Below are positions 4,467 to 8,841 of a DNA stretch of 64,000 nt, one piece after another. Numbering within the stretch: the stretch's first letter is position 1; the number at the start of each line of letters is the position of its first letter. A program made the position numbers and the translations under genes. The notes below the pieces were generated by a model that worked only from the letters and a program-made list of their open reading frames with translations, had not been told where the DNA came from and searched no databases. Origin of the DNA: an uncultured Candidatus Saccharibacteria bacterium (lineage in GTDB: Bacteria; Patescibacteriota; Minisyncoccia; Phycocordibacterales; UBA9973); assembly GCA_964606285.1 (NCBI GenBank), contig CAZSFP010000001.1, forward strand, positions 69,376-133,375, in the 5' to 3' direction.

Positions 4467-5048
4467 ATGCAAGACGAAGAAGATAAAAAAATAGATATTG
4501 GTGAAGAATTGTCTGACGACGTTTCTTTTATTGAAGAAGATGGCGAAGGTGCCGAACTTTCATCTGCTGCCAAAATAAAGAAACTCCGTGAAGAATTGAA
4601 GACCGCGAACAAAGAACGTCTCGAGTATCTGACTGGTTGGCAGCGTGCCCAGGCTGATTATGTAAATCTCAAAAAAGAATCTGGCGAGAGTCTCATTCGT
4701 GGCAAAGAGATTGGCAGGGAACAACTCCTCGATTCATTACTCCCCGCACTCGATAGTTTCGATATGGCGATCGGCAACAAGGAATCATGGGAGAAAGTTG
4801 ATGCGAACTGGCGCAATGGCATCGAATACATCTATTCTCGACTTCTTACTGCACTTACAGAGAACAATGTCACCGTGATCGACAGTGTCGGTGCTCCATT
4901 TGATCCAAATCTCCATGAAGCGATCGAAAATATTCCAACTGACGACACTGGACGTGATCATACAATCGAATCAATCATCCAGAAAGGATACAAGATGGGT
5001 GATCGGATTCTCCGCCCTGCACGAGTGAAAGTATATACTCTAAAATAA
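4467..5048 (+). CDS. grpE: nucleotide exchange factor GrpE
   Basis: 193 aa; acidic N-terminus, coiled coil, then GrpE core (RAQADYVNLKKE....G.E.LL...LP.LDSF..A......V.G..FDPN.HEA). Confidence 0.85.
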   Translation: MQDEEDKKIDIGEELSDDVSFIEEDGEGAELSSAAKIKKLREELKTANKERLEYLTGWQRAQADYVNLKKESGESLIRGKEIGREQLLDSLLPALDSFDMAIGNKESWEKVDANWRNGIEYIYSRLLTALTENNVTVIDSVGAPFDPNLHEAIENIPTDDTGRDHTIESIIQKGYKMGDRILRPARVKVYTLK

Positions 5049-5052
5049 TAAC

Positions 5053-5086
5053 AAAATCCCTTCAATTGAAGGGATTTTGTTATTTT
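5053..5086 (+). terminator. rho-independent terminator after grpE
   Basis: AAAATCCCTTCAATTGAAGGGATTTT hairpin followed by a T-run. Confidence 0.8.
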
Positions 5087-5113
5087 GACAAACTATCTAT
5101 AAAAGTGTATTGT
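5085..5113 (+). promoter_or_regulatory. sigma70-like promoter, copy 1 of a duplicated promoter
   Basis: TTGACA-17 nt-TATTGT. A 41-nt block, TTGACAAACTATCTATAAAAGTGTATTGTGTGCGGGAAATA, is identical at 5910-5950. Confidence 0.6.
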
Positions 5114-5145
5114 GTGCGGGAAATACATCTTTAAAACTCTGGGCT

Positions 5146-5859
5146 ATGAAAATTAAAATATTTCTTATTGATATGTTAACTGGATTGTTTTTACTTATTC
5201 AGTTATATCCTCCATTATTTTCTTTTGTTCCTTCAGAAAAAATTCCCATGATAAGCACAGGTCTCATCATGATTACCGGATTTGTTATTCTCTTTTTGCA
5301 GGTGCCATATGGTCAATTTTTAGAAGAATGGCATGAAAAAAAGATAGATACGCAGCAGTACGCTCTTCGTATCTGTAGTTTATTCATACTGAGAAAAGAG
5401 AAATATTTTCTGATTGATATTGCACCTGCATATTTTGAAGAATCTGAGATTTATAGTCTGACCCACATGCTCTATAGAATGAAAGGATTCTCGCATCGTT
5501 TGACAGTGAGGATGCAGATGGTAAATATCCGAAGATTTCAAAACAACAAACAAAAATTCACTGTTTTAGCAAATGATATAAGTTTGCAATTTCCAACCAA
5601 TATTATCGCTGATTTAAAGAGTTTTTGTATTATGTATGGTCTTCATGGGGATTCTTTGACTCATCTTGTGACGGAATACACAAAGCTTTTGCAGGAAAAA
5701 CTTGGCCAAGAAAAAGCCGAAGTGTTTCTTGTTGAATTGGTGCGATTGTTGGGAGAGGATCAGACGTTTAAAAAAGATGAAGATAAGGTTCGTACAGAAA
5801 TTATAAAACGCCTTAATATTCATATTGATTTGATCAAAAAATCTATGGTTACTGCATAA
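5146..5859 (+). CDS. hypothetical membrane protein, paralog A of a tandem pair
   Basis: Starts MKIKIFLID. Two N-terminal TM helices plus a roughly 170-aa soluble domain. Shares blocks such as KEKYFLIDIA and LNIHIDLIK with the next gene. The track ORF begins at an in-frame TTG at 5110 inside the promoter (MCAGN read-through). Confidence 0.65.
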   Translation: MKIKIFLIDMLTGLFLLIQLYPPLFSFVPSEKIPMISTGLIMITGFVILFLQVPYGQFLEEWHEKKIDTQQYALRICSLFILRKEKYFLIDIAPAYFEESEIYSLTHMLYRMKGFSHRLTVRMQMVNIRRFQNNKQKFTVLANDISLQFPTNIIADLKSFCIMYGLHGDSLTHLVTEYTKLLQEKLGQEKAEVFLVELVRLLGEDQTFKKDEDKVRTEIIKRLNIHIDLIKKSMVTA

Positions 5860-5864
5860 TAGAT

Positions 5865-5897
5865 AAAAATCCCTTTAATGTATAGGGATTTTTTTAT
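5865..5897 (+). terminator. rho-independent terminator
   Basis: AAAATCCCTTTAATGTATAGGGATTTTTTTATTT, same stem as the grpE terminator. Confidence 0.8.
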
Positions 5898-5909
5898 TTC
5901 CTCATATTA

Positions 5910-5938
5910 TTGACAAACTATCTATAAAAGTGTATTGT
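5910..5938 (+). promoter_or_regulatory. sigma70-like promoter, copy 2
   Basis: TTGACA-17-TATTGT, identical to 5085-5113. Confidence 0.6.
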
Positions 5939-5970
5939 GTGCGGGAAATATACCTTTTAAAAATACGGTT

Positions 5971-6681
5971 ATGAAACTAAAACTCATCATTCTCGGAATA
6001 GCTGTTGTGATACTTGCTATCGGTTCTATTTTTTCTCTGGAACAATGGATTTGGAAAATCAATGTATGGTTACCATTTATGGTAGCAGGAATATTTGTAT
6101 ATGTATTTACTGCATATACTGATTTTATTGAAAAAATATCAAAAAAAGAATTGACCAAAGAGGAATACATAGAGTATTTGCTTGATTGGAAATTATCTAA
6201 AAAAGAAAAATATATCCTTATTGATACTGCATTGTCATATCTCAGGATTCCCGATATCAATGATATAACACGTGATCTCTATCAAAAATTAGGACAACAT
6301 GATCTTATTTTAAGGAGATTGCAGGATAACAATGTTGAGCGTTTCTTGAAAAGCCAATATATCAAAGATAGTTTTACAATGAATCTCAGAATGAGTTCCT
6401 CACATGTTGGTGATATTATTTCAGCAATGAAATCATATATTATTTTGCATGGGCTCAATAAGAAGGCGTTCAAGGTATATATCTCATTGTACCGCAAACG
6501 TTGCGAAGCAAGAATTGGATCAGAAAAAACAAAAAAACTGTTTATAAAAATTTCTGAGGAAGTTGAAATAACAAAAGAAATTAAATCGTATGAAAAATGG
6601 TTCCGTGAATGCATTATTGATGAACTTAAAATTCATATAGAAGAGTTACAGTCTTCAAAAAAACAAAAGCTTGTAGCTTGA
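5971..6681 (+). CDS. hypothetical membrane protein, paralog B
   Basis: Starts MKLKLIILG; two TM helices plus a soluble domain; KEKYILIDTA and LKIHIEEL blocks match paralog A. Confidence 0.65.
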   Translation: MKLKLIILGIAVVILAIGSIFSLEQWIWKINVWLPFMVAGIFVYVFTAYTDFIEKISKKELTKEEYIEYLLDWKLSKKEKYILIDTALSYLRIPDINDITRDLYQKLGQHDLILRRLQDNNVERFLKSQYIKDSFTMNLRMSSSHVGDIISAMKSYIILHGLNKKAFKVYISLYRKRCEARIGSEKTKKLFIKISEEVEITKEIKSYEKWFRECIIDELKIHIEELQSSKKQKLVA

Positions 6682-6687
6682 TACATA

Positions 6688-6718
6688 TAAAATCCCGCAT
6701 AATTGTGCGGGATTTTTT
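6688..6718 (+). terminator. rho-independent terminator
   Basis: AAAATCCCGCATAATTGTGCGGGATTTTTT. Confidence 0.8.
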
Positions 6719-6757
6719 GCTGGAAAAAATCGGAGAATGTGGTAGGATGGAAAGCAT

Positions 6758-8056
6758 ATGATTCAAAAAACACATGTAGCTACACTCGCAGGCAAGGTCG
6801 GACAGGAAGTCACTGTTGCTGGTTTTGTCCATGCGCTCCGCATCCAAAGCAAAATCATCTTTCTCGTTCTTCGTGATGTGACTGGACTCGTTCAAAACAT
6901 CATTGAAATCTCAAATCCGGAAGCATTTGACACAGCAAAAGAACTTTCGCTTGAATCTGTTATCACTATCACTGGTACGGTCAAAGAAGCAAAACAGGCT
7001 CCGGGTGGGTTTGAAATCGGGGTATCATCTATCACAGTTCTTTCGAAATCTCTCCCAGAATTGGCAATTCCTGTCGTTGTGAAAGGGAATGATGAAGAGA
7101 CAGAAGCACCGACTCGATTTGACTATCGTTGGATCGATCTTCGCAAGCCAGAAAAGACAAAGATTTTCAAAGTGTGGACTGCTCTTGAAAAAGGATTCCG
7201 CAAGTATTGGGATGAGAACAATTTCATGCAGATCTATACTCCATCATTCATGTCGACACCATCTGAGACTGGTGCTGAAGTTTTCGAGGTGAATTATTTT
7301 GATAAGAAAGCCTATCTCGCGCAGTCACCGCAATTTTATAAACAAATGGCGATTGCTTCAGGATTTGAACGGGTGTTTATGGTTGGTCCAGTTTTTCGTG
7401 CTGAACAATCCTTTACGACTCGTCACCTGACAGAATTTACTGGTTGGGACTTTGAACTTGGGTTTGTTGAATCACATCATGATGTCATGGATCAAGAAGA
7501 GGGTATGATTGTTTCAGGGTTTACAACACTCAAAGAATCGTTTCCTGAACTTGATTTGGATATTCCGGCACGACCGTTTCCACGGATCACGATGGTTGAT
7601 GCAAAGAAAATTCTCGCGGATCAAAATGTTGCAAGCGGAGAAGATCATGATCTCTCACCCGAAGAAGAGCGTGCAATTTCTGACTATGTCAAAAAAGAAT
7701 ACAATCATGATTTTGTATTTATTACCGATTATCACAAATCAAAAAGCGCGTTCTATCACATGCGTCTCGAAGAAGGGTCTGATCGATCTCGTCGTGCCGA
7801 CCTTCTCTTCCGTGGTATCGAAGTAACAACACTTGCCCAGCGTGAACACCGTATTGATATTCTCGAAAAACAGGCGACAGAAAAGGGTATGTCACTCGAA
7901 GCATTGAAAGACTACTTGAACTTCTTTCGGTATGGCGTGCCACCACATGGTGGTGCAGGTATTGGCCCAGGACGCTTCATCATGAAGATCCTCGACCTGC
8001 CAAACGTTCGTGAAGCGACCTATCTCCCACGTGATGTGAAGCGTCTCAATCCATAG
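6758..8056 (+). CDS. aspS: aspartyl-tRNA synthetase, archaeal/eukaryotic short type (AsnRS not excluded)
   Basis: 432 aa class IIb aaRS: N-terminal OB fold, motif 2 FRAEQSFTTRHLTEFTGWDFE, motif 3 GGAGIGPGR, C-terminus PRDVKRLNP. gatB is present in the window, consistent with a non-discriminating AspRS. Confidence 0.6.
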   Translation: MIQKTHVATLAGKVGQEVTVAGFVHALRIQSKIIFLVLRDVTGLVQNIIEISNPEAFDTAKELSLESVITITGTVKEAKQAPGGFEIGVSSITVLSKSLPELAIPVVVKGNDEETEAPTRFDYRWIDLRKPEKTKIFKVWTALEKGFRKYWDENNFMQIYTPSFMSTPSETGAEVFEVNYFDKKAYLAQSPQFYKQMAIASGFERVFMVGPVFRAEQSFTTRHLTEFTGWDFELGFVESHHDVMDQEEGMIVSGFTTLKESFPELDLDIPARPFPRITMVDAKKILADQNVASGEDHDLSPEEERAISDYVKKEYNHDFVFITDYHKSKSAFYHMRLEEGSDRSRRADLLFRGIEVTTLAQREHRIDILEKQATEKGMSLEALKDYLNFFRYGVPPHGGAGIGPGRFIMKILDLPNVREATYLPRDVKRLNP

Positions 8057-8062
8057 AAAATA

Positions 8063-8099
8063 AAAAAACATGGCCATACGGTCATGTTTTTGTTTTTTT
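8063..8099. terminator. bidirectional terminator between convergent aspS and 8098..8841
   Basis: ACATGGCC-ATAC-GGTCATGT hairpin flanked by an A-run and a T-run. Confidence 0.6.
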
Positions 8100-8841
8100 A
8101 CACAAGAACCTTCTCTTTATTTTTTTGGAGAAATTCTTCTTGTGTTTTTTCAATTCTGGTTTTTAATTCTTGTGCAAAATTCCATTTCTCTTTTTCATCA
8201 AGTGTTGGAGAGAAGTATCCTGTTTTTACTGAAGCATGCAAATAATTCAAAAAATGCCGGGTATGTTTTTCTTCATCTTTTAATTCTTTGGAGATCAACC
8301 TGTTTGTTTGATGGGCAATTGTCTGTATTCCTAATTTTTTAGGAAAAGACATCCATATTTTGGGATCAAACGTATTCAATATCACAGTAAAGTCAGTTAT
8401 GGTATTTTCTTCGTCTAGTATTTTCCCTAAAAGATCCGAAAGATGAGGACATGTTTCTATGCTTTTATACAGGATAGATCCCGGACAACTACTCGTTAGT
8501 CCGTATCCACCATAAGGAAAATTGCCAGTTTTCATAAGTCCCTCTATTATTTTTATGAGACTTTTGTAATCTTTTGCATCTGCAAGTTTTTGCTGGTATG
8601 TCAGTGTGACATAGTGTTTCAATATTCGCGCAGTTCTGGTTTCTTTCTTTTTTCTATTTTTCAATATATGAACAATGGTTGTATGAGAAAGGTCAAATGT
8701 GTGCGGATCAATGAGTGACAGAAGTTTTTCTTTTCTGTTGCTCCACCATACGAGAAAAACAACGGTTGCACATAAAGCAAAAATAATCGAACCATAATAG
8801 TCCGACAGGGAGAAGTGGGGAATAATAATGTAAATGTACAT
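8098..8841 (-). CDS. hypothetical membrane-anchored protein
   Basis: 247 aa with an N-terminal TM segment; no recognisable domain. Confidence 0.5.
   Translation of the reverse strand: MYIYIIIPHFSLSDYYGSIIFALCATVVFLVWWSNRKEKLLSLIDPHTFDLSHTTIVHILKNRKKKETRTARILKHYVTLTYQQKLADAKDYKSLIKIIEGLMKTGNFPYGGYGLTSSCPGSILYKSIETCPHLSDLLGKILDEENTITDFTVILNTFDPKIWMSFPKKLGIQTIAHQTNRLISKELKDEEKHTRHFLNYLHASVKTGYFSPTLDEKEKWNFAQELKTRIEKTQEEFLQKNKEKVLV

Follow-up and report, generated by a model that had tools for sequence, protein, structure and literature searches.

Identical promoters in front of two anciently diverged tandem paralogs between grpE and aspS of a Paceibacteria genus: probable recent copying at a strain-variable locus

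The stretch of DNA analysed here, referred to as the window, comprises 64,000 nucleotides (nt) of contig CAZSFP010000001.1 (positions 69,376 to 133,375), which is assigned to an uncultured Candidatus Saccharibacteria bacterium. Between the conserved genes grpE and aspS, the window carries two adjacent genes, named A and B, which encode related membrane-anchored proteins of only 26-27% amino acid identity and which are preceded by exactly the same 41-nt promoter block. This raises the question of why two genes with such different coding sequences start from identical regulatory DNA. The comparison with orthologous loci of close relatives indicates that the identical promoters are the result of recent copying, most likely by a short gene-conversion tract, and not of an anciently conserved regulatory site. 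All coordinates refer to the window and to the plus strand unless stated otherwise.

The region from 5047 to 6718 consists of two successive units of like layout, each composed of a terminator, the promoter block, a leader and a coding sequence (CDS). The 41-nt block TTGACAAACTATCTATAAAAGTGTATTGTGTGCGGGAAATA is found exactly twice in the window, at positions 5085-5125 and 5910-5950, with 0 copies expected by chance, and a third copy is absent from the window even if three mismatches are allowed. In copy 1, the -35 hexamer TTGACA (5085-5090) is followed by a 17-nt spacer, the -10 hexamer TATTGT (5108-5113) and GTGCGGGAAATA; in copy 2, which matches copy 1 at 41 of 41 positions, the hexamers are located at 5910-5915 and 5933-5938. 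Both copies score as sigma-70-like promoters (10/12) in a promoter scan whose matches are common by chance (21 found versus 16.7 expected in shuffled sequences). The ungapped repeat surrounding the block extends over 73 nt at 85% identity, reaches the fourth codon and recurs with a unit period of 825. Gene A (5146-5859, GC content 0.33) encodes a protein of 237 amino acids with two N-terminal transmembrane helices and an all-alpha domain of about 175 residues, and gene B (5971-6681, GC content 0.30) a paralog of 236 amino acids with the same architecture; an earlier note on this DNA had given 238 and 237 residues. The sequence motifs KEKY[FI]LID[IT]A and L[NK]IHI[DE] described there are present in both proteins, and its picture of tandem terminator-promoter-gene units whose regulatory DNA is far more alike than their coding DNA was borne out.

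A and B are paralogous over their full length (BLASTP E-value of 3e-19 over 236 amino acids). Over 230 aligned codons, they share 47% nucleotide identity and a third-position identity of 0.42, compared to 0.30 for random sequences; the nonsynonymous divergence (dN) is 0.81 and the synonymous divergence (dS) about 1.8. The synonymous sites are thus essentially saturated and the genes are old. Had the two units arisen at the same time and had their non-coding DNA changed freely, identical promoters would not be expected.

The locus was compared with five contigs of close relatives, which together with the window make up six loci of one genus. L001, an independent Logan assembly of run SRR21677132, represents a near-identical strain that carries both A and B in the same tandem arrangement at about 99% identity. 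Compared to L001, gene A differs by two non-synonymous changes, one synonymous change and a TAA-to-TAG stop change, and gene B by one non-synonymous and two synonymous changes; both genes are intact in the window and in L001. The other four contigs each contain a single member of the family, namely D in L041, E in L077 and C in both L002 and L003. The neighbourhood is constant on the family contigs, with the gene order rpsI-grpE-[family gene(s)]-aspS-orf247-scpA-scpB. According to the earlier note, nothing is expected between grpE and aspS; however, every relative in the genus has a family member there, and in relatives beyond the genus the two flanking genes do not adjoin each other. Neither of the two outcomes that the note had named as refuting its view was observed: the identity of the block does not extend into the coding sequence in the other strain with two genes (L001), and neither gene copy is a pseudogene.

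The orthologous promoters reveal how fast this DNA changes. Compared to copy 1 of the window, the block differs at 2 of 41 positions in L041, at 9 in L077 and at 18 in L002, and all of these differences lie outside the two hexamers and the downstream motif GAAATA. TTGACA and TATTGT are invariant in both copies of the window and in all five relatives, and GAAATA is likewise conserved, whereas the spacer differs at 2, 6 and 14 of its 17 positions among the orthologous loci. The spacer and the six nucleotides after the -10 hexamer thus vary freely and are not constrained. Other intergenic regions are 73-100% identical between the two clades of relatives described below, and since the identity of the L077 block (78%) falls within this range, the block changes no differently from other intergenic DNA. 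At the level of L077 (0.78 per site), an identity of 41/41 would have a probability of about 4e-5 by our arithmetic. L002 was rejected as a yardstick for neutral change in the spacer because its terminator and spacer are an outlier, being only 62% identical even to its clade-mate L077, and L077 and L041 were used instead. In L002 (9903-9970) and L003 (727-795), the grpE terminator and the promoter spacer are replaced by an unrelated sequence (CCAGCCCTAGG-loop-CCTAGGGCTGG), and the -35 and -10 hexamers and the leader are kept.

Further evidence comes from the two copies themselves. Copy 2 of L001 carries one substitution in the spacer, from A to G, which shows that variation of the spacer is tolerated. 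Position 9 of the block is a C in both copies of the window and in both copies of L001, and a T in L041 and L077; the C is therefore a derived base common to both copies, which places the copying after the split between the window lineage and L041 (aspS dS of 0.23). The borders of the identical tract are sharp, with a mismatch at position -1 and an indel of 11-12 nt on the left side and an identity of only 11/20 over the next 20 nt on the right side. Directly past copy 2, position 5951 is a T in the window and a C in L001, in copy 1 and in all orthologs. The two differences of L001 copy 2, the A-to-G exchange within the block and the C behind it, could be due to point mutation or to a second conversion tract with other end points. 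The tract is thus sharply bounded, is not constrained among orthologs and carries a derived state in both copies at one site, as gene conversion would leave it. Taken together, the variability of the spacer, the shared derived base and the abrupt borders argue that one copy of the block was written from the other long after the divergence of A and B. Concerted evolution of the promoter was one of two interpretations offered in the earlier note and is the better one, since the spacer is not kept in orthologs, the derived base is shared and the similarity drops to 11/20 past the block; the second, diversifying selection on the protein, was not supported by any test, as discussed below. The idea of a duplication followed by divergence of the coding sequences under a conserved regulatory site is contradicted by the ages, with a promoter copy younger than the L041 split and a saturated A-B pair.

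The coding sequences also have a history that differs from that of their surroundings. Based on the flanking genes, the six loci fall into two clades: the first comprises the window, L001 (aspS dS of 0.06) and L041, and the second comprises L002, L003 and L077, with dS values of 0.14-0.3 among them. Members of different clades are separated by dS values of 0.7-0.9 and share 91-99% identity in their housekeeping proteins. This tree is not mirrored by the family genes. At the amino acid level, the identity among C, D and E is 88-94%, though D sits in the first clade (88% to C and E), and the identity of A and B to these three is as low as 33-37% (33-36% for D versus A and B, with 33% for D versus A). 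The dS of A or B versus C, D and E reaches 1.5-2.2, compared to a flank dS of 0.2-0.9. A is most similar to C in the C-terminal third (about 50%), and B is most similar to C at the N-terminus (47%). L041 has upstream DNA of the window type, with an identical grpE terminator, a block matching at 39 of 41 positions and two differences in the leader, and is again window-like downstream of the terminator hairpin behind its family gene. Its coding sequence and this hairpin, in contrast, are L077-like: the hairpin equals that of L077, and D and E differ by a dS of 0.28 versus 0.72 for aspS of the same two contigs. The breakpoints of similarity lie right after ATGAAAnTTAAA on the left side and between the hairpin and GGGATTTTTTGCTGG on the right side. 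Because L041 combines window-type flanks with an L077-like coding sequence and hairpin, it seems that this unit was exchanged or replaced between lineages while the adjoining regulatory DNA remained in place on the chromosome. The coding parts thus have a history separate from that of their regulatory flanks, which points to allele or cassette replacement. For the ancestral state of the first clade, this leaves two options: either A and B were later replaced by D in L041, or D was later replaced by A and B in the window lineage. The GC content of all family genes and of orf247 is low (0.30-0.34, compared to 0.41-0.48 for the flanking genes), which fits accessory genes.

The explanation that we favour as a whole, with a probability of roughly 0.6, combines a strain-variable slot, separate histories of coding sequence and flanks, and a promoter identity brought about by recent copying. 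The grpE-aspS interval would be a slot that holds genus-restricted genes for membrane-anchored, all-alpha and probably cytoplasmic proteins, with one gene in most relatives and a tandem of A and B, which diverged long ago, in the window lineage. Alleles, each consisting of a coding sequence and its terminator hairpin, would be exchanged or replaced between close relatives, with breakpoints at the first codons and just past the hairpin, and the two promoter copies would have been homogenised by short-tract intrachromosomal gene conversion at a time when L041 had already separated from this lineage but L001 had not. We infer gene conversion as the copying mechanism, the cytoplasmic topology and the accessory (conflict or adaptor-type) role of the proteins. 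Several points weigh against this explanation. Gene conversion is indistinguishable from other ways of copying 41 nt, such as allele capture from a sister strain whose promoter was identical, the comparison covers six contigs from one genus only, and a donor lineage was found for neither A nor B. The polarity of the change is judged from a single site, it stays just conceivable that the spacer contains a lineage-specific operator, and dS values above 1, calculated by the method of Nei and Gojobori (NG86), are unreliable in magnitude. Furthermore, a tract of 41 nt is short for RecA-dependent exchange, though it is above the minimal efficient processing segment (MEPS), which is about 25-30 bp in E. 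coli. A more far-reaching version would regard the terminator, the promoter, the 19-nt leader and the first four codons on the left side, together with the hairpin and the aspS promoter on the right side, as a dedicated landing pad, that is, a recombinase-free allele-cassette slot for swapping, stacking and losing divergent alleles of a conflict-related membrane protein. The 41-nt direct repeat might then drive switching from A+B to B by RecA-mediated loop-out, or the exact spacer might act as a lineage-specific operator coupling both genes; we consider this version improbable.

Among the other explanations, capture of an allele without any conversion is close in kind: a sister strain with the same promoter would have donated a promoter-gene-terminator unit, which integrated beside the resident gene via homology of the terminator or promoter, and the promoters would be identical simply because donor and recipient were closely related. 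Such near-identical promoters in front of very different alleles do exist in close relatives, as seen for A in the window and D in L041 (39 of 41 positions in the block, 33% between the proteins), the terminator behind gene A is about 81% like the grpE terminator and could have supplied the left homology, and the mosaic orf247 (dS of 0.013 versus 0.2 in its flanks) implies that recombination is active among these lineages. However, a donor that shares 41 of 41 promoter positions would be expected to share the leader as well, and the leader of B just past the block is only 11/20 identical to that of the resident gene, while A, C, D and E have almost the same leader. As a strain with B alone was not seen either, we regard this route as unlikely. 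Even less probable is that the block is a regulatory site, composed of a promoter and an overlapping operator, which is held identical by purifying selection for the co-regulation of both genes. No locus deviates in the hexamers or in GAAATA, the window, L041 and L077 have the 3' half of the spacer (ATAAAAGTG) in common, and the architecture is confined to the upstream regions of family members, all of which would suit such a site; nevertheless, the spacer and the nucleotides behind the -10 hexamer vary freely in orthologous promoters (2, 9 and 18 of 41 positions), L001 tolerates a substitution in the spacer of copy 2, no operator-type inverted or direct repeat was seen in the block, and selection leaves the derived base in both copies unexplained.

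A recent tandem duplication of the whole unit, followed by extremely fast divergence of the coding sequences through diversifying selection or hypermutation before the promoter could change, would account for the repetition of terminator, promoter, leader and coding sequence with a period of 825 and for the star-like three-way distances, and the family proteins do evolve fast compared to their neighbours (C-D dN of 0.06 versus 0.015-0.058 for the flanks). Synonymous sites are saturated as well, though (dS of 1.5-2.2 versus 0.2-0.9 for the flanks), which positive selection cannot bring about while 41 nt remain unchanged, the leader and the terminator behind A have diverged too, and the ratio dN/dS is below 1 everywhere it was measured. 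To our knowledge, no diversity-generating element rewrites a whole coding sequence, and none was searched for here; overall, a recent duplication appears very unlikely. The window derives from a metagenome-assembled genome, in which short exact repeats can mislead assemblers, and alleles of two co-existing strains might have been joined in tandem through the shared 41-nt repeat. The junction of the A stop codon, the following terminator, TTTCCTCATATTA, the block and the B leader is unique, though, and 41 nt are shorter than a read. L001 has the same order with its own single-nucleotide polymorphisms, one of them inside copy 2 of the block, and because this independent assembly shows the same arrangement, the tandem layout is no assembly artefact; we see next to no chance for such a chimera. 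Recent copying of the promoter within a strain-variable slot thus remains the preferred explanation.

Each of the two genes appears to form a transcription unit of its own, consisting of a sigma-70-type promoter, a short unstructured leader, the coding sequence and an intrinsic terminator, with promoter and terminator activity predicted from the DNA sequence. The architecture TTGACA-17-TATTGT-6-GAAATA was found only upstream of family members, and a scan of JGI metagenomes with the promoter pattern gave 0 matches. Transcription of gene A would start near 5119-5122 and that of gene B near 5944-5947. The leader of A (5119-5145) is unstructured, lacks a clear Shine-Dalgarno sequence and starts with the 19-mer GGAAATACATCTTTAAAAC (5119-5137), which is conserved at 19/19 positions in L002 and L041 and at 18/19 in L077, where one extra A follows the 19-mer. 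The leader of B (5944-5970) departs from that of A past the end of the block. Both leaders fold weakly (-2 to -5 kcal/mol), and an Rfam search of the window returned one tRNA only, with no structured leader or riboswitch. The TTG codons at 5110 and 5935, which start the longest open reading frames (ORFs), were rejected as true start codons, since both lie inside the -10 hexamer.

Each copy of the block is preceded by a AAAATCCC...GGGATTTT hairpin. The grpE terminator T1 (5047-5084) is a 38-nt perfect palindrome, AATAACAAAATCCCTTCAATTGAAGGGATTTTGTTATT, which begins within the grpE stop codon, is followed by T-rich DNA and is identical in L041 and nearly so in L077. T2 (5865-5899), located behind gene A and separated from copy 2 of the block by a 10-nt linker, is a diverged copy of T1 with one T.T mismatch and a T-run; beyond the shared hairpin motif, the two are about 81% alike. 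T3 (6689-6718), located behind gene B, has the form AAAATCCCGCA-loop-TGCGGGATTTTTT and differs from the hairpins of the relatives, and the conserved flank resumes at GGGATTTTTTGCTGG. The predicted RNA hairpins of T1, T2 and T3 have free energies of -20.7, -10.3 and -16.8 kcal/mol (z-scores of -7.4, -2.75 and -5.7), and each is followed by T-rich DNA, so that all three would qualify as intrinsic terminators, with a stable G+C-containing hairpin and a U-run. Because T2 forms the weakest hairpin, some read-through from A into B is conceivable. A simple consensus scan for terminators in the window did not list T1, T2 or T3, probably because the A- and T-rich arms pair and extend the stem into the T-run. 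Hairpins of the type AAATCCC...GGGATTT with A-tract and T-tract arms occur six times in the window (5054, 5867, 6690, 23895, 52387 and 62099), with 0.02 expected by chance. This hairpin is a generic, genome-wide terminator style of the bidirectional type. The contigs of L001 and L041 both end inside the T1 palindrome and lack grpE, and we suspect that the palindrome breaks the k-mer graph assembly.

The AlphaFold2 models of the proteins (mean confidence, pLDDT, of 80 for A and 76 for B) contain a pair of membrane helices at the N-terminus and, behind them, about nine further helices that pack in hairpins. The proteins start with MK(I/L/V)K, the two hydrophobic helices are connected by a loop of 7-9 residues, and a K/R-rich stretch follows the second helix, which is strong in C, D and E and weak in A and B. 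Judging from these features and the models, the helical domain is probably cytoplasmic, with both termini inside. As this topology would place the soluble domain in the cytoplasm, it argues against a role as surface antigen, and the surface-type protein suggested in the earlier note is unlikely in view of the K-rich N-terminus and the two transmembrane helices. Its second suggestion, diversifying selection, is also at odds with the substitution rates: dN/dS is 0.45 for A and B, a value that is uninformative because dS is saturated, and 0.17-0.24 in the comparisons of C, D and E, whose C-terminal half evolves faster (dN of 0.08-0.15), with a dN/dS of at most about 0.35 in the C-terminal quarter, and none of the tests showed a dN/dS above 1 overall or regionally, the sequences being too few for site models.

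No significant match for A or B was obtained in Pfam, NCBIfam, PHROGs, a PDB sequence profile search, Foldseek against PDB (both models) or Foldseek against BFVD (model A), and PADLOC gave no match to a known anti-phage defence or immunity family at E-values up to 1. The motif KEKYxLID...EI..I...LY might be read as a helix-turn-helix of the LuxR or sigma region 4 type; this reading was rejected, since Pfam gave no match, the helices of 14-15 residues are stacked like a helical repeat and no helix-turn-helix protein was among the Foldseek rows. A tetratricopeptide repeat (TPR) or 14-3-3-like fold was not adopted either (best Foldseek E-value of 0.2, TM-scores of 0.2-0.3, no TPR or Sel1 match in Pfam). 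At most, the models suggest a membrane-tethered cytoplasmic helical scaffold or adaptor with an accessory, strain-specific function; whether it takes part in conflicts with phages or hosts is doubtful, though we keep this as a tentative possibility.

The family is very small: about 15 billion proteins comprise no more than three of its subtypes (A-, B- and C-type). When a profile of A and B was run exhaustively with HMMER against 1.84 billion cluster representatives, three clusters were retrieved, namely A, B and P0003 (C). P0004 (D) was the sole addition from a profile search of 5.8 billion clusters, and P0007 (E) came from a cluster look-up. Genomes with A only or B only were not found in the cluster, profile and metagenome searches. 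Scans of GTDB species representatives and JGI metagenomes based on AspS returned only relatives of at most 86% identity, labelled Nomurabacteria, Zambryskibacteria, Paceibacterota and similar, none of which had a family member or adjoining grpE and aspS. No family members were detected in 72 other loci of related genomes or metagenomes of the candidate phyla radiation (CPR), 35 of them metagenome loci checked by tblastn only, in a profile search of all 1,081 ORFs of at least 80 amino acids in the window and 41 loci, or in a scan of viral contigs, and a report of the family or the locus was not found in the literature. Judging from these relatives, the organism is a CPR (Patescibacteria) bacterium of the class Paceibacteria, and since the relatives outside its genus lack a family member, the family is confined to this genus, where it is always located between grpE and aspS.

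The conserved flanks are formed by grpE (4467-5048), which is 92-93% identical at the protein level to the orthologs of L002 and L077 and whose syntenic genes in L002, L003 and L077 match the GrpE family PF01025, and by the aspS upstream region with aspS (6719-8056; 97-98% protein identity to relatives). Downstream follows orf247 (8098-8841, minus strand), an ORFan with an N-terminal transmembrane helix, a GC content of 0.34 and no family match in any library. Due to its similar size and an RKEK..LID-like motif, it was considered as a third paralog and rejected (BLASTP E-values of 0.18 and 5.2). The gene is a mosaic: between the window and L041, it is 97% identical at the amino acid level with a dS of 0.013, though the flanking aspS and scpA have dS values of 0.19-0.23, and it is only 49-73% identical to its counterparts in the second clade, where the flanks are 92-97% identical. 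In L002 (3888-5078) and L077 (1-1072), a gene of about 400 codons with a weak match to Pfam Baseplate_J is located just upstream of infA and rpsM, an unexpected neighbour in a ribosomal-protein region; the matching position of the present genome lies before the start of the window.

The locus is a small, clean example of how the regulatory and the coding DNA of one gene can differ in age and ancestry, even in the reduced genome of a CPR bacterium. It illustrates that orthologous loci need to be compared before divergent paralogs with identical promoters are taken to share a conserved regulation. With the A/B/C family and orf247, two kinds of genus-restricted, low-GC and fast-changing membrane-protein genes are embedded among core genes. 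Strain-variable ORFans such as these are candidates for a role in the interaction of episymbiotic Patescibacteria with hosts or phages. In practical terms, the locus may be useful as a strain-typing marker and as a target of functional studies; it represents an ordinary kind of genome evolution and opens no long-standing question.

The phenomenon belongs to known kinds, namely ectopic conversion between duplicates and strain-variable loci of tandem paralogs that recombine through short conserved stretches. Interlocus gene conversion of tufA and tufB or of rRNA operons homogenises coding or rRNA sequences over hundreds of bases. The window shares with these systems a tract of perfect identity that is younger than the other duplicated DNA, its sharp borders and a derived base in both copies, but here just the 41-nt promoter is homogenised, and the coding sequences, with 47% nucleotide identity, are too diverged to recombine. 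The vlp, vsp and vpma systems of Mycoplasma encode surface-exposed lipoproteins with a signal peptide and a lipobox, which are switched by site-specific inversion or promoter slippage with a recombinase nearby. They resemble the present locus in having a conserved 5' non-coding region and conserved first codons in front of highly divergent tandem coding sequences. However, A and B have no Cys among their first 60 residues, their neighbours are grpE, aspS, orf247 and scpA without a recombinase, and both copies have a complete promoter, and a variable lipoprotein system of the Mycoplasma type was rejected because of the missing lipobox, the missing neighbouring recombinase and the two promoters. 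With regard to the proteins, LapB/YciM and MamA, which are TPR-like and were among the top Foldseek rows, also combine an N-terminal membrane anchor with a stack of antiparallel helices, but all matches were non-significant (E-values of at least 0.2, TM-scores of about 0.2) and TPR or Sel1 matches in Pfam were absent, so that membership is unsupported.

The closest description found in the literature is the lpl (lipoprotein-like) cluster of tandem paralogs in S. aureus, where a conserved recombination stretch lies inside each ORF and many copies are present on a genomic island (Tsuru & Kobayashi 2008, PMC2568036). As in the lpl cluster, the tandem paralogs of the grpE-aspS locus vary greatly from strain to strain within a species or genus, a candidate recombination site is provided by a short stretch of high conservation, and the boundaries of the evolving unit are not those of the ORF; a faint echo of this may be seen in the similarity of A to C in the C-terminal third and of B to C at the N-terminus. 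In contrast to lpl, the identical stretch is the promoter and is present in two copies only, and the genes reside between core genes and lack a lipobox Cys.

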